Shown one piece after another: positions 10,301 to 39,526 of a DNA stretch of 64,000 bases (position 1 is its first letter; each line of letters starts with the position of its first letter). The stretch comes from Psammoneis japonica. Its lineage: Eukaryota. The position numbers were made by a program, and so were the translations under genes. The DNA is taken from positions 62,001 through 126,000 of the forward strand of contig QPGO01000087.1 of assembly GCA_008632985.1 (NCBI GenBank), written 5' to 3'. The notes under the pieces were generated by a model. The model was not told the origin of the DNA. It worked only from the letters and a program-made list of their open reading frames with translations, and ran no database searches.

Positions 10301-10423
10301 ATGACACAGCTGATCCTTCTGTTTGAGGGTCATTTGCAAAAAACATGTTCACAAGCTCTGGAGACAAGAACCTCAGCTGCCACCTGTCTCCTCACTTTCT
10401 TTTGTACAAGACAAACAGCAGCT

Positions 10424-12074
10424 TGGCAGGTTGGCTGGTCAATTGCACCAAAAACACCCAATGATGACATTTTAAGGATTGGCTCCTGTCACCCTCACCA
10501 GCAGGACCACCAGCACATTAAGACCTCCAGGTCACTGTCCACGAAAGACACTGTGTGGGATGATGCAAACACAAATGCACAAAATGATTTAAGTCTGCCA
10601 GTGTGATGCTCTGCTGAACACACTGAAATCCATCTTCATTCACAGACCCTTCCACCACCGCTGCAAATCACCGTGTTGTCGACAAGAACGAACTTTGCGT
10701 TGCCACCGCTGAATGCACAATGAGAGCCAAATGTTCTGATGCCACAGATTGACAGATGTCACTGTGAATTGACTGTGTCTGATGCCAGAAGCTTTGGTTG
10801 GTTGCAATCCGAATGACATTGAACCAAAGAAAAACACACCGGCTCCAACAACAATGCCAATGCAACGCCAAACCAACATGAACAAGTGCAAACAGAAAGA
10901 AACAGAATGAACGTGCATTCATGTGTTTTACACAGCAATTGCAACAACACGCTCACACCTTTTTTGCAATGCTGCTGCTCTTTGTTCTTTCAGAAGCCAA
11001 AGAGAAAATGACATCCGGAAGAGCTGCAGTGTCCTTTGGGAGCAGTTGAAACAAAGTGAGAAAAGAAACAGAATGAATGAGTGTTCCCACATTTCACGCA
11101 GCAATTCCAACAACACACTTGCACCTTTTTCCCCCAATGATGCTTCTCTTTGTCCTTCCAAAGTTTCAAAGAGAAAAAAAAAACCATTGCTGTCCACACA
11201 AGCTGTTGTGTCCTTTGGGAGCAGATGCAGAAAAGAAACAGAATGAATGAGCATTCACATGTTTCGTGCATCAATTCTAATGACACGCTCACACCTTTTT
11301 TGCCAACACTGCTGCTGTTTGTTCTTCCAAAGCTTCAAAGAGAAGCAAAGCCATCGACTTGGAGATCCCAAACCATGAATGCCACAGCCAACAGAGTGAG
11401 CTGTAAGACCACGCCGGAGCATCTCCATGTCCCATGAATGATGCCATTCCATGTTGAGTCAGCAACTTCATTTTTTGAATTGAGCTCGTACAGTTGTCAT
11501 TTTCATCAGCCATCCAACAACACACTTTGTTGGATCAATGAAGACAGCACCTTCAATTGCCAATGCTGCAACATCATGTGCAGAGATGGTCTGAAAAACA
11601 ACATGAACGGCCTTTGGCAAGAGATGTGGACACAGAAATGTGCAGCGGCCTTAAAATGACACTTGCCAAGTGAATGTTCTCTCACAATCATTCTGCACAT
11701 GCTGCTTTTACCTTGTGCTGCTTTTGGTTCATTGCCACTTTCATGATGCAATGAGCGATGAGCGATGAGCGAGATTTGTTGGATCATTTGCTTGTCTGCC
11801 TGCAGTGCTGCACGTAGAAACCACACTGGCTTCACCCAAGTGATGTCATGGTGATCTCACAATGATCTCACACTGCTGCAAAAAAGGACAACAAACATCC
11901 GCATCACTGAAGGTGGTGCAAATCCATTTGAAAGTTCAGGTCAGGTCTCCTCAACAAGATGATCTCAAATCCGGTCTCAAATGGATTTGCACCACCTTTG
12001 GTCATGAAGTTAAATGTGTGTGCACCCATCTCTAAAAATGTCGCATTTGGTGCAATTGACCAGCCAACCTGCCA
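10424..12074. mobile_element. Putative non-autonomous DNA transposon of about 1.65 kb with terminal inverted repeats
   Basis: tggcaggttggctggtcaattgcaccaaa at 10424 is the reverse complement of tttggtgcaattgaccagccaacctgcca ending at 12074. No recognisable transposase. Confidence 0.65.
10891..11345 (+). repeat. Tandem repeat of about 170 bp, roughly 2.7 copies
   Basis: Recurring aaagaaacagaatgaa...caccttttt...gtgtcctttgggagcag. Confidence 0.8.
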
Positions 12075-13247
12075 CTTTTCCCACAGTGAAAGTGGCTCAT
12101 TTTGACTCACACATGTTGACTCACCAATCTCAAAGAGAGTTGTCCTCCCCACTCTTCACATGATCTTGGCTGTTGAGGTCATCAAAGCAATGGTTTCTTT
12201 GTGTGACTTGGCAGCAATCGTGTGTGCTGGTGGCAGCTTCTACAGTTTTGACTTGGTGCACCCATCATCAGGATCTTGCTTTTTTTGTCTGACCTGCAGC
12301 CACATGACAGCTTGTTTTTGGCGTGCAGCACCACATCTGCTCCTTGGCTCTGCAAAGCATGCCACATGTCCAATGCAAGAATCTTGCCTGCCAGAGAGCA
12401 AAACACAGAAACAAGAGGACAGCAGGCTTTCATCATTTTTGTCGCAGTGACAGTGAAGCCATTTGTTTCTGCTTGCTCAGGCAGAAAAGAGCTCTCAAAC
12501 AAATGACTGCACTTGTTCCCACCATGTTGAAGGGCAGGGTTGTGGCACTGGACAATTGGAAAAGAGGAGAGGATCGCTGGAGTTTGCCCCCACAATCTTG
12601 ACCTGTTTTGTGTGAGGCTGGACCCACACTCAAGAGCACTTGAAAGATCTCATTTTGGTCCCAGCCCACAGAGGCAGCCACTGTCACATCAGTGCAGCAG
12701 CAAATGAGAATGATGGGGATGAGCAATGATCCTTCACAACATCTGATGAATCAGAGGAAAGTTGGATGAAGGATCGGTGTTGGCTGCTGAGCTTGGAAAA
12801 AGAAAGGGTTGCTCCAGTCTGTGTCAAGAGAGGGCTCTTGACCCTTTCTGGTTTCCATGATTTGTTCCTGAAAGCTCAAAATTGCAGAGTGGGTGGTGAT
12901 CTTGTTTCCGCCACCACAGAAGAGTTGCACATGGAACACTTCTTCAAATCTCCCCCCCCTGTCCTTTGCATGATGAGTCAGTGTTGGCTTTGAAGAACGT
13001 TGTTGCTCACCTTGCTTGTTCACCACACAGCAGCACTTGGTCAGGGGCAAACATCAAATGGCACAATGACAACATGCAGAATGCACTCGTGTTGAGCATG
13101 AGACAAGCCAGTTGCAGCTGGCAAGGCAATTGAAGCTGGAGCCACTCTTTTTCATTGAGAGAATCCAGGCCACGAGTGACGATGGTGATTGCCCCTCTTT
13201 TTCATTCTATGATGACATTGCTTGTTTGTCACTTGAACAACTTCATC

Positions 13248-13531
13248 TTGTCCGTGCAACTTCTGGTTTGCACAGGGACAGATTCCTTGGATGCTTCGTG
13301 ATGGACATCTCCCTCATGGCACACACACCCAAGGGCAAGTCAAGAAAACTGCATTGTCAAGCAGAGCACAAAAGCTGCCCAGGTCACACTTCTGTTTGTC
13401 TGATGCTGCATGGACAGCAGCAAACATTGTGCCAATGTAAAGGAGGGCAGTGGCCAGCAGAACAGTTGACAGTCACCTTCCATGATTTGGTGCCATGAAA
13501 GAGCGGCACCAGAATCAGGTTGAAGCGGAGC
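13248..13531 (-). pseudogene. Hypermutated, internally deleted copy of the NIPA-like gene at 25258-26560; 3' flank homology extends to about 12500
   Basis: 13250-13320 aligns to 25240-25310, 13322-13531 aligns to 26088-26296, and about 12500-13170 aligns to about 24500-25205. Confidence 0.9.
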
Positions 13532-13956
13532 TCTCACCTCATTTGTTGTCTGTGCCGCTGTCATGTCACCATGACAATGGCAAAGGACTGAGACAATGAG
13601 AGTGTTGTTTTTACATTCTTTTATCATTTACGAGTCGCATTAAAAATGGGATTGATGCACACAGGGCTCAAAATTCGATTCAAAATTCAAAACATCACAT
13701 TACAACGGCGAGAAACAAAATAGTCGCGCTCTCTAGCTAGCGGTCACAGAAGCTCTAAGTATTATCAAGAAACGTTCGCACCAGTAATTAACGACTATGG
13801 AGCATAAAATATATTAGTGTCATTATAACTCCCAATCTAACCATCTCCAAATCGCCAACAACTCGCTTCGCCAAACAGCCAAACATCCACACCATACAGT
13901 GAGAACACCGAGAATCATCAATCATCACACTTTTTTGGTCGTAAACTTCATCAACA

Positions 13957-15219
13957 ATGGCTTTCGTTAAAGTCGTCGATGAAAATTATCCACCAGCTCC
14001 AGTGTTGCTGCTTTCGAAAAGCATAGATGTGATCTGCGGCAGCGCAAATTTTTTTCACTGCCAAAACTGGCGTGATTTGCTTCCGTCTCAGCTGTTGGAA
14101 GTCAGTGGACTGTCTTACAGAGTCGGCGATCTTTCAGAGACTTTTCCTGACACGCTCTCGTATGTGATTTTTTTGGAATCAACTGGTGCGGAGCACTCGC
14201 TCGGTAGCGTATGGAAATATGCCTTTGAGACGCCATCAACCGATTTATCGGTGGTTACAACCCCGCTCGCAATGATGGTGCTATTGTTTCTTGTGTTGCT
14301 ATTACGGGCAATTAAGGGTGTCCTTCTGCCTTACTTCTCGAGGCATGGTCGCCGAGTGGGTCGTGATACGCATGGATTGGATTGGGAGAAGAAAAACGAG
14401 GATCGCATCGTCAAGTTCGGTGAATACAGTTTTCGTCTCTTGTTCCACACGGTCATGAGTGTGGTTGGGATCTGGTATTTTTGGGACAAGGAGTGGTTGG
14501 ATGCGACCCGTGGAGGAACCAAGAACTTATTCGATAACTACCCGCTTGATAGCATTGATGTAGGGATGACTTGGTATTATTTGGTCCAATGTGCTTACAA
14601 TTTGGACGCACTTGTTTCACTCTTGGAACTTAGCTTTTCGGTCGAAAGGAAGTACCCTTTCAGTTCTGGTGGCACCTTTTCAAGTCCTGTGAGCATTGGT
14701 TGGTCCAAGACAGTTCGAGGGGACTTTCGAGAAATGGCGATTCATCATGTACTGACAAATCTATTGGTGATTGGTAGCTCTCACTTCCGTTTAACAAGGA
14801 TTGGATCATTGGTTTTTTTGGTTCATGATATCAGCGATGTATCTGTTGATCTTAGCAAACTTGCTAACTTCATGAAATGGATGAAATGCACCATTGTTGC
14901 ATTCACCAGCACCGTACTTTCATGGCTCACCCTTCGATTGGGCGTTTTCCCATTTGTTATCATCAAGTCGCTTTCCCGGGAAAGTTGGACTACGACAAAG
15001 AATTTTGACGCCAGCTGTTATCATTGTTACCTCCCATTTTTCCTTTGTTTCTGCCAGCTCCTAGCCTTTTTACATCTCTTTTGGTTCTTCACACTTCTGA
15101 AGATAGGTTGGCTCTTGTTGACCAAGGGCGAACGTCATGACTTGACTGAACATAAGAACGGGGAGACCACTCAAGATGCCGAACCACATTCTTTTGCCAA
15201 GAAGCAAGCGTCAAGCTAA
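13957..15219 (+). CDS. Ceramide synthase (LAG1/TLC family), copy 1
   Basis: KFGEYSFR, YYLVQCAY, Lag1 motif RGDFREMAIHH...RIGSLVFLVHDISD, and HLFWF. Confidence 0.9.
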   Translation: MAFVKVVDENYPPAPVLLLSKSIDVICGSANFFHCQNWRDLLPSQLLEVSGLSYRVGDLSETFPDTLSYVIFLESTGAEHSLGSVWKYAFETPSTDLSVVTTPLAMMVLLFLVLLLRAIKGVLLPYFSRHGRRVGRDTHGLDWEKKNEDRIVKFGEYSFRLLFHTVMSVVGIWYFWDKEWLDATRGGTKNLFDNYPLDSIDVGMTWYYLVQCAYNLDALVSLLELSFSVERKYPFSSGGTFSSPVSIGWSKTVRGDFREMAIHHVLTNLLVIGSSHFRLTRIGSLVFLVHDISDVSVDLSKLANFMKWMKCTIVAFTSTVLSWLTLRLGVFPFVIIKSLSRESWTTTKNFDASCYHCYLPFFLCFCQLLAFLHLFWFFTLLKIGWLLLTKGERHDLTEHKNGETTQDAEPHSFAKKQASS

Positions 15220-18200
15220 ATCGCAGGCACACATGATGCCTGTGCAATGCAGCGCATTTTGAGCAAGACTAATTGTGCCGACCGATTGCCAACAAGTCTT
15301 GGTTAAGATTACCTTTAGTTAAGAATGGAGATTAGAGAGTTTCAATTGTCGCTTAGAGCACTGGCAGCTTCAAAAGCTTTGAAGAATTGGCACACACCTA
15401 CTGCCACCACATCAGAGGGGGGGGGGGGGGGGGCAAATTAGCTGGTGCTCAATTGAATCATGCAGGTCAAACCTAGATTTTGCCTGCAGGTCGAACCTGC
15501 AGTGCAATGTGTGTCCCGGTTCATTTTAATTTGGGTTTGCCACATGCACCGGTGCGCTAAATTGACCATGCAGCCATGCCATTGTTCATGCAGCTGAGCA
15601 TGTCATTTCTGGTCTTCACATCACATGAATGGTTTTGATGCAACCCCGTTGTGCAGTGCACTCTTGTTTCATTTGTTGATTGCTGTTCGCACCCCTTTCC
15701 ACACTGGCAATTGGTTGTTTCTTGTCTCATCTTTCATTGTAAATCATTGCCAACAGCAGAGTGACCACACTGTCATCTGCAATGCTTCTGCACACCACAG
15801 CTGCTCTTCATTGATGTCACCATTGTCCTTCATTGTCATCTCATTGCCCACTGTGTCCATTGTGGCTCCCAGGCTGTCAAAGCATTCCCAGAATTCCTTG
15901 GACCACACTTCATTGAATTGCTCTGCACCCTTGCTCATTCTCTTCTTGTGTGCATGTCTTCTTCCCCAACTCTCAGCACCTGTTGAGTCCTTGTTTGTTC
16001 TAACCTTGGTTCCTTCTTGCTTGTTTTCCTTTTTCAGCACTGCACTTTGAGGCAGGAATGAGTCTCTTGTCCTGGAGCTCTTCCTTGGTTTCCCAATGGA
16101 TGTGTGCCCACCTGCCCCAATTGTTTTCTGATGCCAACAGACCAAATGCCTCTTCGCTTGCGAACACCAGCTTGCTCAAACAATGTCACATGGTCTTTCC
16201 AATGACGATGGGTGTGAAATGGTGGGTGCAGCATCTGCGAGCCTTCGTGCCATTCCTCCTCTCCAGCATTTCTTCCAAGGATGGCATCTGCTCCTTGTCA
16301 TGATCCAGCTGACCTGATTGTTCATGAGGTGCAACAAGGCAATGCAAGTTGGTGTTTTTTTTGTCAATGCTCTGCACTTCCTCTTGCAATGACATTTGCG
16401 GAAGAATTCCTTTTTTGGCTCTCCACAGGCATGGCTCCGCTTTTTTCTTTTTTTTGTCACACCTTGTCCTTTGGCATGTCCCACGTCCATGCCCTGTTGA
16501 CTTGTGGCATGTTGATCTCAGACAAAACAATCCTTGCCACCCTTTTCTTGTGGCCCCTTGCAGCCTTTTTGTTCAGAAACTTGTGCTGATGGAAAAGTGT
16601 GTTCTTGCTGCAGTTTTCCAAAACAATCTTGCCCCTGTCACCCACTCATGTTGTTGTTGAATCATTTTTTCTTTCATTTGTCACTCATTGCATTCAGCCC
16701 TTCATTTGCAATGGAGGTGGTGAGAGTCCTGTTTGTCACAACCCCTCCATTTGTTCCCTGGTGCTCTGCCATTGATGCGGGTGCATCTGTTTCTGTTTCT
16801 TGTGCTCTCCCTGTTGTGCCTGCTTGTTTCACAATCCACTGCACTGTCAGCTGGTTCAATTCAAGCAGTGTGAGCAGCTTGCACTTTGTTGCTTGCCTCT
16901 TTTCTCTCATTGGGCTTTGGGGTGGTTGGTTTTGCCATGCAGTTTGTCTTGGCAGCATGGCACTGTTTGCATTTTTTCTGGTTTCTGGAGAAGCAAGACT
17001 TTTGTTGTTCTGGGATGCATTGCAGTCACAGCACTGCCATGTGCTGCATTTGTTTGCAGATGCAACTGACAACCTTGCACTGGAACCTGCTGTCTTGTGT
17101 GTCCCTTCTGCAATTTTCAAATCTGTTGTGCATTGTGATTGGTCAATTGTTTTGAAACCAAAACACCAACACACATGCACACATGATGCAACATCCATTC
17201 AAACATGATGTCTGTCATTCATTTGCTCATGACTCCACCTTGCCACCGCATGTCACTGCACTCTTTTTCTGCACATGAGGCTGTGCAGTTTGTCCAACAT
17301 GTGGCAACAAATCATCTCCCAATTTGTTCCACTGGGCCTGCTGTTGCACACCTCTGGCTGGTGCATTCTTCTGTGGTGCACCACAATGTTGTCTTCCATT
17401 TTGTTGTCCAGGTTGGAGAGGCACCTGTCCAACTTTTGCCAGTCACATTGTCATGGTGTTGTGGCCATTTTGGTGATGGGGAATGTGCAACAGACAACCA
17501 TCCTTCTGTCACATTCAAGGAGCTTCCCATGGTGTTGGACAAAGCTGAGTTCAAGAAACATTTCAGAGTCATCTGCTTGCTTCTGTTGCATCTTTGCTCC
17601 ATTCTCACAAGAGCAGCACAACCATCATGGACAAATTCAACTAGGACAAAGCACCTGATTTAACATGTTTTTGGATGTCAACACTGACGTGCTCAGCCCA
17701 GACAATGCTGGTTCATCCATGGATTCATTGACACACTTTTCTTGCAAAATGACAGCACATCTCCTGCTCTTCATTGTTGTTGTGGGCTCTGCCTTGCAAC
17801 ATTCAATTGTCCACAGCAGCAGTCCTTTCCTCCCCTGATGCATCTGTTGTCAGGAAGTCACCATTGATCAACCCCCCAGAGTGCAACAAATCACTGTGGC
17901 AAAGGGAAGCTCTGAACAAGAACTGCCTGCACAAGAGGGGTGTTGGCAACCTTTTGCATCATGGATTGGACTGCAGTGTGCAATCATGCCAAAACAACAG
18001 AGTGCTGCAATGAAGCTTCCTTTTTTGTGGGACAGCTGCGTGCTGTTCATTCAAAGCAACCAAAAATGGGAAGTGGAAAAACCCATTGTCGTGGACAATG
18101 CAAAGTTGGACATGGTCCATGACACACAATTGGATGCATCCATCAACACTGGTTCAAGGGGGCTGCCATCAGCTTGTTGGGTGTGGATTGCTTGTCCTTG

Positions 18201-19277
18201 CATGACACTCAGCGGAGCTGTTGAAATTAACCAAGAAGAGTGTGGGTGGAACAGATGAAAAAAAAACTTTCTGCAAAAGGAAAGAAAGCAGACAAAAAGT
18301 CCAAGAAAAGCCAAGTCCATTTTGGGAACAGGAACAATCCAAGGTTGAGTGGTCTTGTTGTTCACACTCCCAGAAACATGGACATGCACAGGTTTTGCTC
18401 AGTGAAGCTGATCCAAAAGTGTTCAGAAAGCAAGGACAAGGACATGACAGAGTCCACCCATGTCATCATTGAGCATTTGGGTGAGTCAATGCCAACACCC
18501 TCTGCAAGATCTGGTGTTTGCATGTGAAGAGCTGACACAGAGTGGCAGAGGAAGTGGCAGAAAACCACCAGAAATCTTCGCAGAAGGGCAAAGGAGTTGC
18601 CAAATGGAGACCAAGCATTGTGCTCTGCTGTGGATGACATGCTGCACAGCACCCTCATGGTTGGAAGTGGCTGCAGGGGTGGGTTGCCGAAATTCATGTC
18701 AACAGCTGCATTGCTTCCATGCAATGGAGAGGTTTGGCAGACTTCTGTTGCAACCTCGCTGGTGACAATGCAAACATTGTCCTTCTTGTGTGTGTGTTCC
18801 AGTTGCAAGTGGCATGTTGCAACCCATCTAAATTTTGCAATGGGCAAAAACCACAAGTTCCTTTCATGCTGGATTGTTTTGTCATGGAGCAGCTCATGTG
18901 GGGACTTGCCCAACTCATTTGAATGACTTGTTCAACCGTGCAAGTGAAATGACAAAATTGCTTGTGCCAAAGCCAGAGTGGACATGTGAGTGTGACAATG
19001 ACAGTGGTTGTCTTTTCATTGCTTGGTGCACCAAGCAAAACTTGCCAATGGTGCATGCAGAACCTCTCATCTCTTTGTGGTGAAGATTGGAAATGGACCC
19101 AATGACCCAATGAGTGTTGGTTCAGACAAGGATTGGTTCAATCTTCATGAAAAGTTGGATGAGATGGAACCAATTCATGATTTTGGTGAGATGTCAAAAA
19201 TTGTGTAAACAGAAAAGAGATGATCCCAACAACAATGGAACAGTGCTGAAAAAAAAACAGATGCTGTCACCACAGCA

Positions 19278-19867
19278 GTTGGAATGCTTCGCCAGTTGCA
19301 AAACCAGAAGGGATCAAACTCTGCTGGGGTGGTGGATCCCTGAGCTTGGGACAAAAACACATTGTCGTTGTTGCCTGAGTCACTCGGCTCCATTTGGTGG
19401 TCATTTGTCTTGTCCTTGTCCTGTGCAGAGAGTGGGAAATCAATTTGTTCCACAGGGACAAGGCCACCATTGCTTGTTCTTTCATTGCAGCACAAAAAAT
19501 CAAGAGTGGGTCTGACCAGCATTCCATTGCCAGTGCTCCAGTCCTGCTCCCATGGTGGCAGCTGGCTGAGTTGGAATGCTGCCAGTTACAAAACTAGAAG
19601 GCATCAAACTCTGCTGGCAGTGGATCCCTGAGCTTGGGACAAAAACACATTGTCGTCATTGCCTGGGTCACTTGGCCCCATTTGGCGGTCATTTGTCTTG
19701 TCCTTGTCCTGTGCAGAGGGTGGGAAATCAATTGGTTCCATGGAGACAAGGCTGCCATTGCCTGTTCCTTCATTGCAGCACAAAAAATCAAGAGTGGGTC
19801 TGACCAGCATTCCATTGCCGGTGCTCCAGTCCCCAGTCCCCACTCCCATGGTGGCAGCTGGCTGACT
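19278..19867 (+). repeat. Tandem duplication of about 290 bp
   Basis: tggatccctgagcttgggacaaaaacacattgtcgt...cagcacaaaaaatcaagagtgggtctgaccagcattccattgcc...cccatggtggcagctggctga occurs twice in tandem. Confidence 0.9.
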
Positions 19868-22800
19868 TGGTTCTTCCAAAGCATTGTTCAACAAATGATG
19901 TGCTGGTGGCCCACACACACAATTTGGTTTTCTGGCATCATTCAGGGTGCCATTCAATGCCCTGGTGGATGAGATGACAATGTTCTTGTGACACTTCATT
20001 GAAGAGAGAACATCCTGAGCAGCACACTTTTGCTTCAAATGTGACAACAGAACCTTTGTGATGAAACGATTTTTGCAGACGAGAGTGTTTGTGTCATCAG
20101 CATTGTCTGCACCAGCCTGCTGGCCACTGTTTTCAGGTGCAGTGGGCACCTCAGCAAGGTTTTGCAGGTTGTCAATCAAATCATCACAGTGACCCGGGAA
20201 CACACCAGTGAGGAGAAACTTGACACAGATCAACTGTGTGAGTGCCTGTGGCACAGCACTGTTCATGACATGGCGCACAGTTCACCCAGCATTCTTGTCA
20301 CAGATGGTGGCACAGCTCTGGTCAAGGTCACACATTGGTGTTCAAGTGTGATGCAGGCAGACAGCAGCCACAAAAGACACAGGAAAAACTCCACCCACAA
20401 AGATGGAGCCAATCTTCCAAAGTGTGGCAGGTTTTGCAGAGACGGGCTGCATCACAACAACAAGCCACAGCTTTGTGTTCTTCATCCACAAATTTGACAC
20501 CAGTGTCACAAACAAGTTCAGAGGAGTGCACTGACCCATTGAAGACAGATCACAGAAGAAATGCTGTCACAAAGTTGGGAAAAGAACCTTCACAGAGGAG
20601 CAGCACCTCAACAACAACAACAATGTCACCTTCAACATCTGGATGGGCAGTGTGCACATGGCTGTGTTGGTTGAAGATGCTGTCCAGGGCAGCTGAAAAC
20701 AAGGCACTGCTGGCCTTTGGCAGGAGAATGTGATCAATTTGGGATCAAAAATGAGCTGCAAATGCGTTTCAACAGACAACACCATGGGGCCTGCCTTCTC
20801 CCAAAACTTTGCATGAATGGAAGGAGCGTTGCAACAACCAGTCTTCTTGTCTGTGAAAACACATTCCTCAGACATCATTGCAAAGGGAGACTCAGAGTTT
20901 ACACCAGCATCAAGGAGTGATTGGAAATTCATGGTGTTCCCTGTCTCTTGTTTTGATGGAAAACCAAGAAAAAAGAAGGGCTTGACCAACCTTTGAGCTC
21001 CCCACTGTTTTCACAAGGTTGGACTCCAAATTGTTCATTTTGCTGACATGAGGACACGTTTTTCTGAGCTTTCTGGAGAGATGCTGTCATGGTGCTGGCG
21101 GCAGTGATTTTTCCCCCTTGTTGGCATTGCACTTGCTTGGCAAAAGGTTGCAGAGCTTTTCCTGTTGGTTTCTGCACAGGCCATGCATCCACCAGTGAAA
21201 CAACAACAGCCACATTTTGCAATCCTTGTGGGACAAGTTGTTTGGGTCAAGAGCGTGCATTTTGCTTGGATGCTTCTAGCAACTCAGCATCCTTGAAGGA
21301 AGGAACTTTGTCACAATGCATGAGAAATTTGAGACATTTGGGTGGAAGAATGGCCAGAGAGAATGCAAGCAATCTGCCACATTGGCAGCAGTGGCAGCTT
21401 TGTTGTTGATGGAGGCAGCAGTGACAGCAGCTGCTGGGTTGTTGGCAGGTGCTGTGGTGGCAGTGGCTGGTTGTTGGCAAGGGCTGATCCTGAGTGGCTG
21501 CATGAGAGGCCAAGCTTGAGAGGCAAAGTTTGAGATTGGCCACCCTTGCCTTTGCCACCATGGCCATGACCACCGGCATTGGAATGGTTGGCACCACAAC
21601 TGCCTGCATCTCCATGAGAGTTCTTGTCCTTGCAGCACACCATTGTGATGATGCACCAAAAAGCAAATTTGGTTGTGAGGGCATCAACTGGTTGGGAAGA
21701 TTGAAAAGATGGCACCTGAAGTCCCAGAACAATTGAAAGAAGATGGAGCAAGCCAGCATGACTATGAAAATTTCCATCTCAACAAGAACACATTGATGTG
21801 ACAAAAAATGAGACATTGACCTGCTGCGGACACAAATGCAATGAATCTCACTCAAGCAGTCCTTCACACACAGCTGTGAATTGCATGACATCTTGTGAAT
21901 CAAAAATGTTAAATTGGTGCAAAACCTCAACAACTTGACAATTCATTCAAGTCATTTCAAATTGTTCAAACCTTCAAAAGTGAGTGTGAACATGGAATTT
22001 TGAAACAAAAATGCCATTTGCAAAGCAACACAGACAGCAATCACCAGGCAGACATGCTCAACATTGCCACAAAAAGAAATCACCATTGCCTCACAAGACA
22101 CAAAATACAACACACAGGACTCATCCAACATCTTGACAACAATGACAGTGTGGGAAGGCAGTGGCAGAGCAGAGTGCAGGCACAATCCGAGGAAGAAAAT
22201 GTGGGCACAAGGTGAGAGAGAGAGGAAGTTGCAAACTGTTGACTCTCCTGCCAATCTTTCCACTCAGACACATTGACATGCAAGAGGAGCCAGAAGGGAA
22301 GAAGATGATGCTGGGATGCCACAAAAGTGAGCAGAAGCACCATGTGCACCAAGCTGATTAAAAAAAAGCACATGCAAAACTCTGATCTGTTGCACACTCT
22401 TTTCTCTTCTTGCAGCCAATGATTTGGCCACCCGAACATGACAAACAAAAGAGAGGTCACAATGTAGAGTGAATGGCGATCATGGAGAGCAGTTGTGAGG
22501 GACAACACCATGACTGCAACAGGATTCCATCATTGTGCAGACAGCCAAGGGCAATGGGAGCACTGGTGGAAGATGTGGCAAAATGATGGGGAAGAAAGAG
22601 CAGGAAACAGGAAGCAAAGAAAGCAGATTCAGTGCAGAAAAAATGAATTGCAACAGGTGCAAATCAAATTGCACATGTGCAGCACCACACAGCCAACACA
22701 CAAGCACATCAATGAGATGAATGAATGTTGTTGTTGTTGTCAGCAATGAGCAGTGTTGGAAATTTGTTGCAATTGTGCGGTTGTTCAGAAGAATCAATTG

Positions 22801-22999
22801 CAAGCCACAAGTTTTGTTCATTGTCATTTCCTGCTTTGCTGAGGATGACATTTGTTGCAAACAGAAATTGAGTCATGTCAAAACAATTCTTAATGTGCAC
22901 ACAGATTGTCTTGTCAAGATGACATGCATTGCAGGGCCAACTGACATTGAGCATCACCTCCTGCTTTGCTGATCACATCAATTGTGAGTGGCCCTGCAA

Positions 23000-24070
23000 T
23001 CGCAATGAATTGGCCCTTGCCAAGCAGACAGCATTTTGATCTGGTGCAGATGAATTCTGAGCAAGAGCAACAACATTTTTCAGACAAGAAAGCTGTTGAG
23101 GGTCTGGCAAAAGAGGGTGGGACAAGGTTGTGTGGGGCTGGGACAATGTGGGTGACAACACAACTGAGTGCAGAAGCCTCAAAGATTGAATGGGTGCATG
23201 ACACCATTGACAAGTCGGGATGACAGGCAGATGGCTGCACGCAAAGAACCACAAGGAAGATTGGCAAGCATGTCAGAAGAATGTTTGGCCCGGAGATGCA
23301 GCTGCTGGTGTCCCTGAGGCAGGAGAGCACACCAAAAGAGCCAGAGCATCCATCGGGAGACACTGCATTAGAGAAGGACAAGGCAATCTGGGGCAAGCAA
23401 TGTGATCACTGTGCAAAACATAGTGTGATCTACAAGATGCAGAAGGCAAAGGTGTTTGGTGAAAATGTGGGACAGTGCACAAACATGCCATTCATCACAA
23501 GGTTGAAGGAGTGACAGAGTTCACAAGAGTTGCAAAGGAGTGGAATGTGGTGGCACTGTTGGAAATTCTCAAAGACCTTGTTTGATGCAAATGAGAAGAT
23601 GTGCTGCTTGCATGTTCAGGTGGTCAAGGCTTGGAAGCGCTTGGTGCTCATTCATCAAGATGAAGGAGAGTGACTTCAAGATTGTTGTGATTGGTTCATT
23701 GGTGTTGTTGAGATGGTGGAAGGGTCCTGCGGCAGGATCATCCTGGAAGGAATTGCCAAGAAAGCAGACAGGTTCAGCTGGGATGCTGATGACACCCAGA
23801 AGAAAGAAAAGAACAAGTTGTCAGTGGTGTTGCCAATGGAAGGTGCCAAGGAATGTTGGCATGTCTTAAAAGGCCTGGATCAACAGTTTGCACTGGGGGC
23901 TGACAATTGCCCCAATTCAGCCAAGGAGGCATTGCAGGTGTTGAACATGCATGGTGCCAATGAGAAACCTGAGAGGGTGCAAGTTTTGCACAAAATGAGA
24001 AGAAGCAGATCAAATGCTGGAAATGTGGAAGGCTGGGCATGTGAAAAAGGATTGTGCTTTGCTCAATGAT
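23000..24070 (+). mobile_element. Degenerate Ty1/Copia (diatom CoDi-like) gag relic
   Basis: Fragments EKDKAIWGKQCDHC..KAKVFG..GQC and LDQQFALGADNCP.SAKEALQVL resemble diatom Copia gag (W.KQYD.Y; G.DNYP) with Tyr replaced by Cys. Recognised from memory, not from a search. Confidence 0.6.
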
Positions 24071-25257
24071 GACAACAATGATCATTGCAATTGGAGTTGA
24101 GTGATGCAGGCCACAGGATTTGGTGTGGCAGTTGAAGTGGTGTTTGGCATGGTTTCCAAGTGTCATGCTCCTGTGCTTGGTGCATGTGAGGTCAATCTGT
24201 GGATGGCTTGCATGAAGGAGTGTGTTGGAACATTGGGGTGAGAGGCAGATTTCAAATAACAGACAGACAACAATGCAGTGTGCAAGATGTGTGGATGGCT
24301 CTCTGGGTGATGTGGTGAATTTCTGCTTGCAACTCAGGTTGAGTTGCATGTCTTGTGCTCACTTTTTAGCTTCTGCACCCACAGTCAACATGACAACAGT
24401 GGTCAACAACATTGGGAATGTGTTTGCAAGCCATGTGGTGAGTTTGGGGTTGGCATGACACCAAGTGTCTGTCAGTCGGCAAGCCATGAAACTCCAACAC
24501 CACTTGCTCCCAAATTTAAAGGTGGGCTGCAGCATGAGACAAGTGGAAAAGAGGAGGAATGCTTGAGTTGGCATTGTGATCTTGACAAGCTTTGTGGAAG
24601 ACTGGACTGGCACAAGCATTTGAAAGACCCTGCTTTTGTCCCAGCCCACAGGGGGGCCCACATGATCAATGTGGCTGAAACTGAGAGCAGTGTGCAAACA
24701 ATGGAAATGACAGAGATCAGGGAACATTTGCAACATCTCACAAGTCAGAGAAACACCTGTGTCAGTGAAGGCTTGCCAGGTGACAGCAAACAATGTCCCC
24801 ACCCACAACTTGAAGAATTGACATTGGCTGCTGAGCTTGGACAATGAAGGGATTCTAGCCTCTGTGTTTTTTAAACAGATTGGCCCTTTCTGCTTTCCAT
24901 GATTTATTCCTGAAGGCTCAAAAAGCCCTGAATGGGTGGTGATCTTGTGGCCACCACCATCCTGCAATGGCAGAGTTCTTGCACAGAGGACCCTTCAAAT
25001 CTCCCCCCCTTGTCCTTCACATTAGTCTGTGATTCCTTTGAAGGACGTTGTCACTCATCATTCTTCACCAAAAAACAGCGCTTGATCGGGCAAACATCAA
25101 ATGGCACAATGATGACTTGCAGAATGCACTAATGTTGAGTACAATAAGCTTATCGTAGCAAGGCAATGGAACCTGGAACTGTTCTATTTTAATTGAGAGA
25201 ATCTAAACCAGGAGTTCGTCACATGAACGACTTCAACTCATCCGTGTAACTTCTGGT

Positions 25258-26560
25258 TTACGCAGCGACGGATGCCTTGGTCGCTCGGTGACGGATCTCT
25301 CCCTCATGGTAGTCTTCGTGGGGATCGGTTGCCCCACCGAATGCCGTCGTCGTATCATGGCACTCCTCCAACAATAAGTCATCACTCCCTGCGGAGGCGG
25401 CGGCGAGGTCCGGAGGCAAGAGCTCGTCGTAAGAAACACGAACACCACTTTTCCATGTTGCCTTTTCTATTTGCTCGGGGCTTGGACTGCCGGATTTGAC
25501 GCTCACTGTCATATTCCCCGGGGCGGCTGTTTCGTCATTGATGCCATCCATATTCTGCTGCCGGCTTCTTTCATTAACGAGCATCGCGATTCCGGCAAGG
25601 GCCGTGATAAGTCCGAATGAATAAGATACGGCATCCGCAGGTAGGTTCATTTGCCGGTACTCTCCAAAGTAAAGCATGCCACCGGCAATGTTCAAACCGT
25701 TCAAGAAAGTTTGGTAGATAGGAACGGCTATCAACGCCTCATACCCGGCGAGGGCCTTGTTGAGGTACCCTACCTGCGTAAGCACACAACATACCGTCCC
25801 CGTCAAGAAGAAACAAGGCAACAAGCTGAATTCTCCCGTCGATGGGTAGTGCAGCAATCTGTTCAGAAATGCAAATGTGCCTCCTCCGTTATTATTTCCG
25901 TCCACGATCGCGTTCTTGATGAGTTCTGATAGGCTCTTGGCGCACAAGACGCTTTGACCACCGAAACAACCTGCCAACCCACAAAAGTCGACGACACCGT
26001 ACTTGTCATGCCCACCGTTAGTTCCGCCAAGTCTACCTTTTCTTCTTCGCTGTTTTGTCCTTTTGTACAGAAATGTTTGAAACACTATACACACCCCAAG
26101 GTAAGTCAAGAAGACTGCGTTGGTAAGCAGGGCGTAAAAGCTGTCTAGGTCATACTTCTGTTCGTCTGACGCCGCGTGGACAGCAGCAAAGATTGTGCCG
26201 ACGTAAATGAGGGCGGTAGCCAGCAGCACATTGACAGTCACCTTCTCTGATTTGGTGCCGTGAAAGAGCGGCGCCAGTACCAGGTTGAAGCCGAGCGAGA
26301 GAGATCCAAGGGGTCCCAGCAGAGACTGTGGCGCCAATCCTATCAATACAAAGTCACCACAAGCGTCTAATACCAAAATCGTCATCCCCAACACCCACAG
26401 CGGCTGCCTGTGAGGAGGGCGAGGTTTGTTCGCGGATTCTTTCTTCTTGGCCGCTACATGGTTCTTCCTCGCGCCCCATGCTGAACTTTTGCAGGTTGAC
26501 GCCGACGGCCCCCATGAATGACAGAGTCACGCTCCACGTTACCGCTAACCAAACTCTCAT
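25258..26560 (-). CDS. NIPA-family Mg2+ transporter (DMT superfamily); one frameshift near 26460
   Basis: N-terminal GAVGVNLQK, then in the other frame RQPLWVLG..GDF....APQSLLGPLGSLSL.FN, QVGYLNKAL, VPIYQT, GGMLYFGEY. Confidence 0.85.
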
Positions 26561-27328
26561 TTTGCCTGAGCTACTCTTACTGTATGGTTTCGCTTATTCT
26601 CGTACGGTACGGTATATTGTGAGATTGTTCTCACTATTATTTGTATACCATATAATGTTCAGCACTGGCTGTTTTGATGCTTTTTGTGCTTTTCGTCTGT
26701 ATTCTTTCGTTGCACTTTGTTGGCCCTATCTTTGAATTTGTCTATGAGGTTGTTGTCGTCCCGAAATCGTTTCGGCAAACGACGGCATCATTCTTCATCT
26801 AATTGTATGAGCGCGCAGAAAAGAGCCAAGCAAAACGGCCCCCACCAAAACTTAAATTCAATTTTTTATTATTTACTGAATAGAAGCTGAATATTTCAAA
26901 TGGTTATAGGCTTCTTGCTATTGAATGACTGAATAACTTTAAACGACGATAGTCAAAACAAAAAGATACACTAATAAATTTAATAGAGCATTGCAACAAA
27001 AAACGGCGGTAAAACTAGTGGTCGTGCCGAAAAACTAGAAATAAGTATATACGTACTTATGATTTTAGTTTCCATTTGTATGAGCGATTATGAACAAAGA
27101 TAGTATACTCAAGTATAAAGAATAAATAAGCTCAACGTACATTAGGAGGATCAATAATTGTCTAATTTTTTGAACTACTACGTAAGGGCGGCCCTTCCGA
27201 GAACCCTACAGTCAGTATGTACCGGTACTGTAGGCCTACCGGTAGATAATAAAAAATTGGAAAAATACGAGAACAATAATTTTCTTCTTGTAACTGTATG
27301 GGGTAGGGCCCACTAAACTTCATCAACA

Positions 27329-28579
27329 ATGGCTTTCGTTACAGTCGTCGATGAAAATTATCCACCAGCTCCAGTGTTGCTGCTATCGAAAAGTATAGAT
27401 GTATTCTGCGGCAGCGCAAATTTTTTTCACTGCCAAAACTGGCGTGACTTGCTTCCGTCTCAGCTGTTGGAAGTCAGTGGACTGTCTTACAGAGTCGGCG
27501 ATGTATCAGAGGCTATTCCTGACACGCTCTCGTATGTGAATTTTTTGGAATCAACTGGTGCGGAGCACTCGCTCGGTAGCGTATGGAATTATGCCTTTGA
27601 GACGCCCTCAACAGATTTGTCGGTGGTTACAACCCCGCTCGCAATGGTGGTGCTATTGTTTCTTGTGTTGCTATTAAGGGCAATTAAGGGTGTCCTGCTG
27701 CCTTACTTTTCGAGCCATGGTCGCCGAGTTGGTCGCCATACGCATGGAGTGGATTGGGAGAAGAAAAACGAGGACCGAATCGTCAAGTTTGGTGAATACA
27801 GTTTTCGTCTCTTGTTCCACACGGCCATGAGTGTGGTTGGGATCTGGTATTTTTGGGACAAGGAGTGGTTGGATGCGACCCGTGGAGGAACCAAGAACTT
27901 ATTCGATAACTACCCGCTCGATAGCACTGATGTAGGGATGACTTGGTATTATTTGATCCAGTGTACTTACAATTTGGACGCACTTGTTTCACTCGTGGAA
28001 CTTAGCTTTTCGGTCGAAATGAAGTACCCTTTCAGTTCTGGTGGCACCTTTTCAAGTCCTGTGAGCATTGGTTGGTCCAAGACAGTTCGAGGTGACTTTC
28101 GAGAAATGGCGATTCATCATTTACTGACGAATCTATTGGTGATTGGTAGCTCCCACTTCCATTTCACAAGGATTGGATCCTTGGTTTTTTTAGTTCATGA
28201 TATCAGCGATGTATCTGTCGATCTTTGCAAACTTGCCAACTTCTTGAAATGGAAAATATGCACCATTGTTGCATTCACCAGCACCTTACTCTCATGGCTC
28301 ACCCTTCGATTGGGCGTTTTCCCATTTGTCATAATCAAGTCGATTGCCCGGGAAAGTTGGATGACGACAAAGAATTTTGACGCCAGCTGTTATCATTGTT
28401 ACCTCCCGTTCTTTCTTTGTTTCTGCCAGCTCCTGGCCTTGTTACATCTCTTTTGGTTCTTCACACTACTGAAGATCGGTTGGCTCTTGGTGACCAAGGG
28501 CGAACGTCATGACCTGACAGAGCATAAGAACGGGGAGACGACTCGAGACTCCGAACCACATTCTTTTTCCAAGAAGTAA
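27329..28579 (+). CDS. Ceramide synthase (LAG1/TLC family), copy 2
   Basis: Near-identical paralog of 13957-15219 with an intact Lag1 motif (HH...HDISD). Confidence 0.9.
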   Translation: MAFVTVVDENYPPAPVLLLSKSIDVFCGSANFFHCQNWRDLLPSQLLEVSGLSYRVGDVSEAIPDTLSYVNFLESTGAEHSLGSVWNYAFETPSTDLSVVTTPLAMVVLLFLVLLLRAIKGVLLPYFSSHGRRVGRHTHGVDWEKKNEDRIVKFGEYSFRLLFHTAMSVVGIWYFWDKEWLDATRGGTKNLFDNYPLDSTDVGMTWYYLIQCTYNLDALVSLVELSFSVEMKYPFSSGGTFSSPVSIGWSKTVRGDFREMAIHHLLTNLLVIGSSHFHFTRIGSLVFLVHDISDVSVDLCKLANFLKWKICTIVAFTSTLLSWLTLRLGVFPFVIIKSIARESWMTTKNFDASCYHCYLPFFLCFCQLLALLHLFWFFTLLKIGWLLVTKGERHDLTEHKNGETTRDSEPHSFSKK

Positions 28580-28779
28580 ATGTCAAGGTAAATTGCTGGC
28601 ATTCATGATGCCTGTGCAATGCGGCGCAGTTGGAGTACGACTACTAAAGATAGCCTTAAGTTAAGAATGGACATTAAAGAATTTCCTTCTTTTTCAACAA
28701 CATTGAAGGGAACTATCACAAGTCATGCCTTGCCGATGCATTGAAGTCGGTCGAAAAGATTAGCACAAAGTATCGGTCG

Positions 28780-29969: not shown

Positions 29970-32830
29970 GCCTGACATGAACAAAAAGTGACACATGGCA
30001 CAGCTCATCTCACTGACCACCTGGTCAAGTGACACCAAACTTTCATTTGTGAGTGAGTGTGTGGCTCAGTGCCAAGATCGGTCGCAGGAATGTGGCAGTT
30101 TGTTGCGGACCACCCGGGTTCTGACCAGAGTTTGCATGTTGCAATGTGCAGTGATTTTGGCATCGACTTGTGCAAAAGTGTTGTGAGGGGGCTGGGACCT
30201 CTCGTGTGATGACTCCGCTGCACACTTTGTGCTGTCCCCGCTGCTGTGTCACATGATCCTTCATGCACACACACCACATGGCATTGGCACACAAATCAAC
30301 TGCTGCTTGTTTCCATTCTCGTTTCTGCACATTTCTCATGTTCTGCATGAGCATGGTGGTCAGCACCCCCCGAACCCGAAAGCTTGTTTTCTTGCCGCCA
30401 ACTGTGCTGCAGAGATGCACAAGAAATCTGGGAACAAATTCCAAGATGCAACAAGAAGAGGGAACACCAAAAACAAAGAATTCATTTAAGGTCAAGGAAT
30501 TTCTGCCATGCGCAGGGGGGAAAGTCCTGCAAAATGCTCCACATGAGGATGAAGAAGATGAGGATGATGCCACTTCGTGCTCATTTGTTGAAAAGGTGCC
30601 AAGCAAACTGGGAGGAAACCAAAGCACAGGCACAAGCATTTGAACTGGCAGCAGCCAACACTTGGAAAAGCTGGGCCATGCTGGGGAGCTCCACTCTCAA
30701 CCCTTCAACCACCAGGGGAGTGAGGGCTTGTGGTGTGTCGTGCACTTTTGCAATGACACAATGGACACAGCACAAAAATGTCATGTCGTGCAGAATCCAC
30801 GCAAAGTGTGCCACGTGCATTTGCTCATTGGGAGCAAATCTCCACCGGCAGAGATAATTTGCTCCAAGGGTGTGGCATTGTTGCTCTGTTTGTGACAGCA
30901 GCTCATGACACAACCTCCATTGTCAAAGGTTGAGATTTAGCTCCCTTGTGTTCGCCAATGAAGCTTGCAAAAAATCCGGTGTTAAAAGTCGACATTGAAC
31001 TTTCTAAATTGCAAAAAGGGTTCCCCCAGATTTTCGGCGATGCATGTTCCAAAACAAAATTGGGCGAATGAAATGTCACCCATGTCTGCAATTGTTTCAT
31101 TTGCTGTGTTTGTGACACAAGGGAGCAAATCTCCACCCATGGAGATTTGCTCAAGTCTGGTGGTTGAAGGGTTGGCATGTCACATGCCACTGGAATCACC
31201 ATTTGTGAGTCCAGCGAGTGAGCTTCGTCCACATCTCCTGGCATTCAACTGACCAAACATGGCACAAACAAAGTCAACAAACTCAAGCAATGGAGACATC
31301 CTGATTGGCTCAATTTGTGTCATCATGGTTGGACTTTAATTCTGGGTTGGCAAATGAAAAAACATTTGCGATGTCTTTGGAATGTCAGCGAACTCAGAGT
31401 CAAACATGTGGATGATGTCACAAGTTTCTTGAAGCCACAGTGTCAACAACACAGGGTTGCTTGCACTCAATTTGACTGTTTTTCATCCTGGCTCAGAAGA
31501 ATCTGAAAACACCAGCAGCAATCACATGGAAACAAAAAGCAACAGCAGCAATGATTCTCTGAGAGGGTTGTGCCAGCCTGGTGGCTGATCTGTGCGATGA
31601 TCTTTCTTTCCAGCTTGGCCGCCCTGCTGAAGGCCCTGACAATGTGAGCACAGCCAGAGAGCACCTTTTTCTGCACTCAACAGGTGCCAATGCACAGATC
31701 AACAAGCTTGGGCAGCTCCACCTTGGAAAAAACAAGAGTTCACATGATGCACAATTTGTGTCTTGCAGCAAAGCAGTGCAGCACATCTGGCATGAGCTGA
31801 CAAGCTGGACATTGGAGCCAAACAAAATCATGAGTGCCAACAAAAACAAAGCATGAAGCCACACATCTGACAAAAAGTGCAAAGTGTTTCTGGCAAAAGC
31901 GGGTCATCAAATTGTCTCAATGTGCCATTGCAAGCACAATTTTTAGGGTGCTTGCATTGGCTCACAAAAAGGACTCTGAAAGAGGAGCAGATGAGGATCT
32001 CCAGCAGTTGACCAAGACTTTCATCTTGCAAATGTCCCTGTTTTGTGCTGCCCCAAGATGTCAGTGACATTCAAAGGTGACAAAGAAGCTTCGGTTGGAG
32101 AGCAGCACAGCTGGCCGCCACATCAACAACTGTCACTCTGCAAAATTGCAAAAGAAGAAAAAACAAACAAAATTTCTCCAGCTTCTTCAAAAATGCAGAC
32201 AACCAAAAACCCACAAGAACAACAAATGCAAGATTGAGTGTTTGGCTGCTGACAATGACCACACAGCAAGGCACAGCACTGTCAGCCAGTGCTGTGTTGT
32301 TTGTGAGCAACTGAGCCGCTGTCTTGATCAAAAAAGCTCAAGCTCTGCATGCAATGACAAAACCAAGTTTGCAAAAATGTGATTTGCTGCCAGTTGATGT
32401 GCAACAAAGCTTTTCCAATGTTGTGCCACTTTGGATGACACCCACCTTCTCAAGCCTCAACAAACATGGCTCTCACATGAGCACCCGCCCTTTTGTCCAA
32501 TGATTGGGCAAAAGCCCTGTCACATTGGAAAGCTTTTGACATGTTTTTTTTTTTCATTTAGCATTTTGTGCAATGACATGAGTGTTTTAGATGTCAAATT
32601 GTCTCATGGGTTTGGATGCCAAAATGACAGCAAGTTGAGAGACTGCGAGTCTCAGAAATTGACACACGCACACGCACACACACGCACACACTGCCTGCAC
32701 ACACCACACACACACCTGGTGGTGCAGTCAACTCTGACAGCCACATCTTGTGTGCATCACTTGGGATTCCCAAACCCTGCCCTTTGCAGACAGTTGAGGC
32801 TCAGAGGAATCGACCTGCATGCCCTAGAAG
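29970..32830. repeat. CpG- and TpA-depleted degenerate block C
   Basis: Same dinucleotide signature. Fragmented ORFs of unidentified origin. (CA)n-like tract at about 32663-32715. Confidence 0.75.
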
Positions 32831-39230: not shown

Positions 39231-39232
39231 AC

Positions 39233-39526
39233 CACAGGCTCAGAGCAAACCTGGGTGTAACACCTGGCTACCCCGCAAAAGAACTCTGGAAAACCAAATT
39301 TACGTAGAAGAAGTGCCAGGGACCCAGCAGAAATGCCAAACAAGTCCGGAATTTCGTGATTTTTTTGACAGCCCTGGTGCTGATTCTACGATGGATTCTA
39401 CGCAGTTTCTGGATGTTTATTCCGGACTTATTTGGCATTTCTACTGGGGCCCTGGTGCTCCTTCTACGTAAATTTGGTTTTCCGGAGTTCTTTTGCGGGG
39501 TAGCTGGGTTTAACTCTGAGCCTGTG
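39233..39526. mobile_element. MITE of 294 bp with long (about 110-120 bp) inverted arms and a 7-bp target-site duplication GTGGAAC
   Basis: cacaggctcagag...gtccggaat (39233-39352) pairs with attccggac...ctctgagcctgtg (39419-39526). gtggaac lies at 39226-39232 and 39527-39533. Confidence 0.85.

Follow-up and report, generated by a model that had tools for sequence, protein, structure and literature searches.

A stretch of 64,000 nucleotides from the diatom Psammoneis japonica (contig QPGO01000087.1, positions 62,001–126,000, forward strand), referred to here as the window, contains seven discrete blocks of DNA that have lost nearly all of their TA and CG dinucleotides. Within these blocks TA and CG have each been converted to TG or CA, almost to saturation, with the base composition remaining flat, and the two losses are separable processes which follow different context rules inside one sharply bounded domain. 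The pattern very probably arose in situ, through two context-specific transition processes that affect both strands, and the best overall reading, to which we assign a probability of roughly 0.55 from sequence evidence, is chromatin-targeted deamination of adenine in DNA combined with the decay of 5-methylcytosine (5mC).

Extent and composition of the blocks

In 1-kb sliding windows, the observed/expected ratio (o/e) within the blocks is 0.02–0.41 for CG and 0.00–0.11 for TA, with TG and CA at about 1.5–2.4; the flanking genes give values of 0.8–1.3 for CG and 0.35–0.94 for TA, and G+C is about 0.44–0.54 for blocks and flanks alike. The blocks, which together make up 23,892 bp or 37% of the window, lie at about these positions:

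9250–13600, block 1: core survival of CG 0.24 and of TA 0.11; right end related by paralogy to that of the main block
15560–25100, main block (block 2): 9541 bp, with 53 CG, 28 TA, 1138 TG and 1088 CA
29980–32810, block 3: left edge (30000–30450) with 0 TA and 42% of the expected CG present
36810–39250, block 4: depleted in CG and TA by sliding windows
53420–54470, block 5: directly upstream of the RPB2 gene (49933–53184, minus strand)
57530–61005, block 6: right edge (60250–61000) with 60% of the expected CG and 7% of the expected TA
63800–64000, seventh block: start only, continuing past the end of the window

At the block boundaries the transitions in CG and TA span no more than 100 bp. The initial annotation of this DNA had described seven sharply bounded blocks lacking CG and TA, and the blocks, their sharpness and their coordinates all hold, apart from the start given for the main block (15360), which lies about 200 bp too early. 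Across six block cores (21,536 bp), only 62 TA are observed versus the 1472 expected from base composition, and 190 CG versus 1225; the o/e of CG across the blocks is 0.18. The core stretch of the main block (15656–24946, 9291 bp) retains 49 CG and 27 TA alongside 1113 TG and 1055 CA, and the slightly wider interval originally delimited (15360–25130) has 57 CG, 33 TA, 1162 TG and 1113 CA. Adenine as such is not depleted, accounting for 26.4% of bases in the blocks versus 25.3% in the flanks, and AA occurs 86 times per kb in the blocks versus 75 in the flanks, which bears out the earlier argument that AA persists and that the loss is therefore specific to TpA.

The two losses coincide closely. 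When 638 windows of 300 bp are classified, both CG and TA are normal in 323 and depleted in 174, with only five that have lost TA at normal CG and two that have lost CG at normal TA. When 400-bp windows were scored for the loss of both steps, 176 of the 637 in the 64-kb stretch were positive, compared to none of the 5610 from 586 kb of metagenome sequence (71 RPB2-bearing contigs, mostly diatom-like), although these loci around RPB2 relatives are few, gene-dense and mostly short, and constitute a specificity control, not evidence on other diatoms. In the metagenome contigs with a distant RPB2 (50–60% identity; L054–L059 and L061–L063), some windows are TA-poor with normal CG and others show the reverse; this one-sided poverty is probably the ordinary genome-wide composition of other eukaryotes.

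Conversion of TA and CG to TG and CA

The blocks contain 243.1 pyrimidine–purine (YR) steps per kb, versus 240.5 in the flanks. Random in silico conversion of flank DNA, at 87% of CG and 93% of TA, gave o/e values of 1.84 for TG and 1.87 for CA and left G+C almost flat, and the values observed in the blocks are 1.83 and 1.84, respectively. The conserved number of YR steps and the match with the simulation together suggest that the blocks represent normal DNA of this genome whose CG and TA were exchanged for TG and CA.

Over all blocks, TG and CA are found at 113.5 and 115.6 per kb. Local heterogeneity in TG versus CA is present in the blocks (chi2 68.3, 45 degrees of freedom, p = 0.014) and also in the flanks (95.7, 64 degrees of freedom, p = 0.006), and no excess of large-scale strand asymmetry of TG versus CA was found in the blocks relative to the flanks. 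Since TG and CA are nearly equal, and their heterogeneity is no greater than that of the flanks, both strands must have been affected.

The composition of stop codons in the block cores is also distinctive, with 32 TAA, 15 TAG and 553 TGA, so that TGA is effectively the sole stop codon. The near-absence of TAA and TAG makes chance open reading frames (ORFs) of 100–230 codons abundant, and these could be mis-annotated as genes.

A duplicated host gene gives the direction of change

A natural experiment on the direction of change is provided by a tandem segmental duplication, at 12510–15271 and 24501–28643, of a unit that consists of a block end, a NIPA-type gene and a TLC-domain gene. Its gene copies are:

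13224–13531, minus strand: degraded remnant of a gene for a NIPA-type Mg transporter, lying in the edge of block 1; the mutated copy of the pair
25261–26394, minus strand: intact NIPA-type gene (Pfam PF05653, E 2.5e-24); the unmutated reference
13957–15219, plus strand: TLC-domain (ceramide-synthase-like) gene, copy A (Pfam PF03798), located between two blocks and not hypermutated
27329–28579, plus strand: TLC-domain gene, copy B

The NIPA copy in block 1 has shrunk to about 300 bp (13224–13321 plus 13320–13531), with an internal loss of about 780 bp, and was aligned with the corresponding parts of the intact gene (25214–25311 and 26086–26296) as reference. Nine of the 13 TA in the reference have become CA and two TG, one is kept and one is otherwise changed; the 22 reference CG comprise ten that have become CA, seven that have become TG, two that are kept and three that are otherwise changed. 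The 211-bp segment of the reference carries 13 CG and 10 TA, and its counterpart in the block two CG and one TA, such that 20 of these 23 steps have been lost, while the other sites are about 9% different; from this we estimate that CG and TA steps were mutated in 20- to 50-fold excess per step over other sites. The concern, raised with the initial annotation, that source copies might already have been devoid of TA is answered by this pair, in which the intact copy carries both TA and CG.

The two TLC copies (13942–15271 and 27314–28643, 1330 bp) provide the complementary case. They share 93.5% identity and differ by 41 transitions and 46 transversions, both are open (420 and 416 amino acids), and none of their 290 YR steps is doubly discordant. 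As the NIPA fragment is a DNA-level duplicate of a host gene which is joined to an unmutated gene, the conversion must have happened in place, and since the 93.5%-identical TLC duplicate is intact, being duplicated is not in itself enough to set off the process. The target is more likely to be addressed through a chromatin state.

Independent resolution in paralogues within the blocks

Further evidence comes from recoding the window into purines and pyrimidines (R/Y) and searching it against itself with BLAST. Paralogues located within blocks are 88–98% identical in R/Y coding versus 72–88% in letters, and therefore differ almost exclusively by transitions. Five such pairs have 223 conserved YR steps in all, and 31 of these differ at both positions, reading CA in one copy and TG in the other, compared to 15 doubly discordant steps among 840 adjacent steps that are not YR (Fisher p = 4e-12). 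This is as expected if an ancestral CG or TA mutated on one strand in one copy and on the opposite strand in the other. One in-block paralogy joins the right end of block 1 (12767–13177) to that of the main block (24811–25215), at 72% identity in letters and 88–91% in R/Y coding, and a much closer one lies inside the main block:

19277–19870: in-block tandem duplication (19277–19574 and 19569–19870), 92% identical in letters and 98% in R/Y coding, with 21 transitions and 3 transversions

This young duplication contains five double CA/TG discordances and five single ones, indicating that conversion continued after it had arisen. The polarised NIPA pair, the CA/TG discordances and the conserved number of YR steps together sustain the original proposal that a second, TpA-specific A:T>G:C process operates beside the change of CpG to TpG or CpA.

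Context rules of the two losses

Taking the flanks, which are mostly coding, as a proxy for the ancestral blocks, survival of TA depends strongly on the neighbouring bases: it is 0.317 for YTAR (38 observed versus 199), 0.052 for YTAY (12 versus 381), 0.043 for RTAR (9 versus 347) and 0.011 for RTAY (3 versus 439), such that YTAR survives about 30-fold better than RTAY. These survivals are nearly additive in logarithms, which fits a rule that works per strand, whereby an A after T is hit about fourfold faster when it stands before a pyrimidine (5'-TAY-3'). The products retain a trace of the same preference, with an R:Y ratio before CA of 1.41 versus 0.99 in a context-free simulation and a Y:R ratio after TG of 1.27 versus 1.09. 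Seven polarised sites have an asymmetric context (RTAR or YTAY), and of these five were resolved as predicted, one in the opposite manner and one was kept. A context-free conversion model was replaced by the TAY-biased one, which lowers the root-mean-square error against the dinucleotide profile of the blocks from 6.82 to 5.95, an improvement that is only partial. TTAA accounts for 20 of the 62 surviving TA (32%); had these TA been newly made from CA or TG, the TTAA share would be 5.9%, and this origin was rejected.

The loss of CG obeys a different rule, with a survival of 0.32 where G or C stands on both sides (SCGS) and of 0.10–0.13 otherwise. CpG is co-depleted in every block, the survival of CG in block cores (S_CG) being 0.07–0.24, and in all eight regions examined (8/8) the loss of TA is at least as complete as that of CG. 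The two losses come apart at the two edges that face neighbouring genes, the left edge of block 3 and the right edge of block 6, where about half of the expected CG is still present (42% and 60%) and TA is absent or nearly so (0% and 7%).

Authenticity of the sequence

The blocks are reproduced by sequence derived from reads. A public run, X1, contains 94% of the words sampled from positions 13900–23899 of the window, and its Logan contigs match the blocks at flank-like depth and nearly without differences; examples are a contig of 1615 bp on 11969–13583 with 0 differences, one of 3489 bp on 15418–18906 with 1 difference and one of 1162 bp on 19790–20951 with 0 differences. The read support that the initial annotation had called for is thus provided. 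An artefact of assembly, polishing or base-calling at modified bases might otherwise have been suspected, given that some long-read assemblies contain systematic consensus errors at methylated motifs, but the agreement with the X1 contigs, and the evolutionary logic obeyed by the pattern between paralogues, leave this explanation with a close to negligible probability.

At full depth the window differs from X1 at 15 positions, nine in blocks and six in flanks. Interconversions between CG or TA and TG or CA make up six of the nine block differences (four at CpG and two at TpA, positions 9629 and 10771) and one of the six in the flanks. It is possible that conversion is still active in the blocks, these differences being few and unpolarised in direction.

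Comparison with known systems

The closest precedent for the TpA half is the chlorarachniophyte alga Bigelowiella natans, for which Mettrop et al. (bioRxiv 10.64898/2026.01.13.699255) reported 302 de novo mutations, of which 231 were located in two regions of integrated viral DNA, 230 of these 231 being A>G or T>C and all at TpA. The same preprint describes 124 clusters genome-wide that are depleted in TpA and enriched in CpA and TpG, and its authors propose a DNA adenine deaminase that is ADAT2-like. As in B. natans, the change in P. japonica is restricted to A:T>G:C at TpA, with TpG or CpA as the product depending on the strand, in discrete regions of the nuclear genome. The differences are several. 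The host is a diatom, and thus a stramenopile, in contrast to the rhizarian B. natans; the loss of TpA is coupled here to a near-complete loss of CpG, a dinucleotide with 0 occurrences in the main text of the preprint; and TA o/e in the blocks is about 0.05, which is near saturation, compared to a Rho_TpA of 0.45 in the viral region that is still mutating in B. natans. The TAY context bias and a host pseudogene as target are shown here and are absent from the main text of the preprint, whereas mutation was seen live there, in accumulation lines, and is deduced from sequence in the present case. The target in B. natans is integrated viral or foreign DNA, and the target here consists of six blocks with no Pfam family, of which parts are multi-copy and one part is a fragment of a host pseudogene.

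Repeat-induced point mutation (RIP) of ascomycete fungi resembles the present process in being a transition-only, context-specific hypermutation which inactivates its targets permanently and renders them invisible to homology searches. Its outcome is the opposite, as the initial annotation had recognised: RIP turns CpA into TpA and so creates TA, whereas the blocks have a TpA/ApT ratio of 0.05 and a (CpA+TpG)/(ApC+GpT) ratio of 2.02. In addition, unlike under RIP, the 1330-bp TLC duplicate was left untouched at 93.5% identity and the blocks have undergone no drop in GC. Methylation-driven decay of CpG, as in vertebrate transposons, shares with the blocks the change of CG to TG or CA on both strands and the sparing of CpG in G+C-rich context, but it is unable to remove TA, the loss of which is here at least as extensive as that of CG. 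Basidiomycetes, too, are said to subject their transposons to CpG-targeted hypermutation. Hyperediting of repeat-derived double-stranded RNA by ADAR enzymes, which is aimed at repeats and viruses, likewise changes A to G with a preference for 5' U or T. ADAR, however, acts on RNA and prefers a 3' G, whereas the changes described here were made in situ on both strands of chromosomal DNA and favour a 3' pyrimidine. Finally, dinoflagellates, which also belong to the stramenopile–alveolate–rhizarian (SAR) lineage, possess a TET/JBP-dependent base modification, 5-hydroxymethyluracil (5hmU), with a reported preference for TA, on repeats and with a role in silencing (PMC11572971); unlike the change in the blocks it is an epigenetic mark, and it is not known as a mutation process.

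Proposed mechanism and alternatives

We envisage that the DNA of the blocks would lie in silenced chromatin, in which CpG would become TpG or CpA through deamination of 5mC. CpG methylation of diatom transposons is established. In Phaeodactylum, methylation of an element in CpG context is mentioned in PMC2806351, and mutation-accumulation lines identified CG as most mutable, with a GC>AT bias (PMC6604790). The loss of TpA would be an A:T>G:C change at TpA only, strongest when the mutated A precedes a pyrimidine (5'-TAY-3'), and thereby the same kind of locally targeted hypermutation as in B. natans. It would most likely proceed through an ADAT2/TadA-like polynucleotide adenosine deaminase which is recruited to this chromatin and turns adenine in DNA into inosine, with the two processes sharing a target domain and using separate enzymes. 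tRNA adenosine deaminases act in a U33-A34 context, which matches the 5' T seen here. Adenine deamination is the simplest chemistry for the TpA half because it is hydrolytic, yields A>G and would have the 5' T of the tRNA-deaminase context, and we put it forward as a tentative candidate.

A thymine-side chemistry would place the lesion on the other base of the pair, with a TET/JBP-type dioxygenase oxidising T at TpA to 5hmU or 5-formyl-U, which would lead to T>C through mispairing with G or faulty repair; enzymes of this class might oxidise 5mC at CpG as well. 5-Formyl-U is mutagenic. The palindromic nature of TpA hides T>C behind A>G, and the context reads equally well as R-T-A. The dinoflagellate TET/JBP homologue makes a repeat-enriched 5hmU and silences transposons, and older work cited in the same study found T to be preferentially replaced in TA and TC (PMC11572971). 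TC is nevertheless not visibly converted in the blocks, although it stands at 57 per kb in block cores versus 67–69 in flanks; overall we consider this route unlikely. If one bifunctional polynucleotide deaminase attacked A in TpA as well as C or 5mC in CpG, this would explain why the two losses coincide (only seven of the 638 windows being clearly discordant) and why they are of similar size in the NIPA pair (11 of 13 TA and 17 of 22 CG), and ADAT2 enzymes with deaminating activity on A as well as C in DNA are cited in the B. natans preprint (bioRxiv 10.64898/2026.01.13.699255). Against it stand the edge zones that lost TA and kept 42–60% of CG, the restriction of the B. natans mutations to TpA (230 of 231; same preprint), and contexts that are not parallel, as the deaminated A follows a 5' T and the C precedes a 3' G. 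As survival of CG, moreover, tracks G+C flanks (SCGS versus the rest) and that of TA tracks R/Y flanks, one enzyme for both steps appears quite unlikely.

The initial annotation had also listed error-prone patch repair of the Pol-eta type, triggered by T:G mismatches from 5mC deamination and leaving A>G changes nearby, which would account for the common domain of both signatures. Pol eta causes A>G at WA motifs (W being A or T), and AA, as noted, is not depleted in the blocks; TA loss is, further, at least as complete as CG loss in every region examined, and complete where most CG remains, and in B. natans TpA mutates without C>T (bioRxiv 10.64898/2026.01.13.699255), all of which disfavours this candidate and makes it very unlikely. 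The remaining option is that the pattern was made off the chromosome, either by ADAR-type hyperediting of RNA followed by reverse transcription or by the arrival of inserts natively poor in CG and TA, akin to the CpG/UpA suppression of RNA viruses. The preference of ADAR for 5' U (discussed in bioRxiv 10.64898/2026.01.13.699255) and the failure to assign the blocks to any Pfam family could be taken to favour it. It is largely refuted, with only a faint chance left, by the conversion in place of a host-gene duplicate contiguous with an unmutated gene, by paralogues within blocks that resolved the same sites differently, by the equal effect on both strands and by the best survival of TAG and TAA, which is the opposite of ADAR's 3'-G preference.

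Several points weigh against chromatin-targeted adenine deamination combined with 5mC decay, or limit its reach. The polarised evidence consists of just 309 aligned bases with 13 TA and 22 CG sites; the context-dependent survivals lean on the mostly coding proxy described above; and, TpA being palindromic, A>G on one strand is indistinguishable from T>C on the other. In the block cores GpC is found at 72 per kb versus 57–60 in the simulations and ApT at 56 versus 63–66, and the TAY-biased model accounts for only part of this GpC excess and of the deficits of ApT and TpC; the residual deviation may reflect ancestral composition or a further process. Six-frame read-throughs of blocks 1, 2, 4, 5 and 6 (with X at stops) gave 0 Pfam families. 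X1 may be the assembly's own sample, in which case it excludes an artefact of assembly or polishing and is not independent of organism or sample. Lastly, the 586-kb metagenome scan gave no such block, and the process may not be general among diatoms.

Novelty and implications

Besides the B. natans preprint, the literature searched, which covered few of the subscription journals, yielded nothing on the subject: there is no report of TpA-directed loss in diatoms or of combined CG and TA loss, and the available parts of PMC2806351, PMC4504042 and PMC6604790 make no mention of TpA-directed loss. The original statement that no described mechanism has this signature has to be withdrawn for its TpA half, which was reported in 2026 for B. 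natans (bioRxiv 10.64898/2026.01.13.699255). The process in P. japonica is of the same kind, in a different SAR lineage, with the addition of CpG coupling, near-saturation, the TAY rule and a host-gene target.

If confirmed, these findings would extend TpA hypermutation from one rhizarian alga to the diatoms, which are major primary producers of the ocean, and would suggest either an old, SAR-wide defence or convergence; what they would add beyond the main text of the B. natans preprint is the coupling to CpG decay, the TAY rule and the conversion of host DNA in place. A bolder scenario, which we regard as rather unlikely on present evidence, is that one chromatin-guided enzyme, common to diatoms and chlorarachniophytes, deaminates A in double-stranded chromosomal DNA at 5'-TAY-3' and is thereby a natural DNA adenine base editor. 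In diatoms this enzyme would act beside CpG methylation as a two-pronged mutagenic defence, erasing both self-complementary YR steps from silenced DNA, host pseudogenes included, and would represent a SAR-wide counterpart of RIP whose chemistry is reversed. The adenine base editors now in use were evolved in the laboratory, and an enzyme found in nature that edits A within duplex DNA would, if real, be of interest to genome engineers. For annotation, the 37% of the window that homology search does not recognise implies that the repeat content of such genomes is probably underestimated, and R/Y recoding offers a means of seeing through the damage to CG and TA.

Content of the blocks and neighbouring genes

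The DNA of the blocks is non-coding, partly repetitive, and located between diatom housekeeping genes. Pfam scans of blocks 1–6 found no transposon or viral protein domain: the sole hits were sub-threshold, namely Lig_chan in the six-frame search of block 3 (18.9 bits, cut-off 30.8) and WI12 in a search of 24 block ORFs (19.7 bits, cut-off 27). ARAGORN, Rfam (at the gathering threshold) and Tandem Repeats Finder (minimum score 80) found nothing in the whole window. Copy number is uneven along the main block, in which the summed depth of X1 contigs is 79–110 over most of its length, 359 over 21.7–22.3 kb and 646–770 in a multi-copy zone at 23000–25000, compared to 56–80 in the flanks; 263 of the 503 X1 contigs placed on the window are only 90–95% alike. 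From the densities of sites, two independently saturated copies are calculated to differ at about 9.5% of positions, which would put repeat families right at the 90% likeness threshold. The description of the process as repeat-targeted is accordingly upheld in part: portions of the blocks are multi-copy at no less than 90% likeness, but only portions, no transposon domain was found, and the 93.5%-identical TLC duplicate is untouched. That the blocks are repeat-derived is likely but not shown. Within the multi-copy zone, on the minus strand at 23777–24994, there is a frame of 406 codons with one TGA, where about 11 would be expected by our estimate, which makes it unusually long even in the absence of TA, and a phmmer search of this 406-residue frame against 1.84 billion proteins gave 0 hits.

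The R/Y self-comparison of the window revealed neither long terminal repeats nor inverted repeats around the main block, and no families shared across blocks beyond the right-end paralogy of block 1 and the main block. In block 1 a unit of about 118 bp occurs three times, at intervals of some 165–170 bp from start to start (10894–11011, 11059–11176 and 11229–11348), and there is also a 178-bp repeat spaced 428 bp apart (9704–10310); these repeats are visible mainly in R/Y coding and had no match in Tandem Repeats Finder at a score of 80. Just outside the right edge of block 4 there is an inverted repeat of 91 bp (39262–39352 and 39419–39509), 98.9% identical in R/Y coding, which could be a terminal inverted repeat or a hairpin.

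The genes between the blocks are intact and of housekeeping type, and include those for ERO1, two TLC-domain proteins, a NIPA-type transporter, a ceramidase, a sterol-sensing-domain protein, an RSN1-type channel, RPB2 and TatD. The nearest named relatives of RPB2 are from Thalassiosira, Fistulifera, Discostella and Skeletonema (82–85% identity), followed by the bolidophyte Triparma at 69% and other stramenopiles at 57–64%, and the relatives of the TLC protein agree with this diatom placement, which the initial annotation had assumed and which separates the organism from Bigelowiella. A gene with FAD_binding_2 and cytochrome-b5 domains at 5079–7179 on the minus strand is split over two ORFs (6289–7179 and 5079–6167), probably by an intron.

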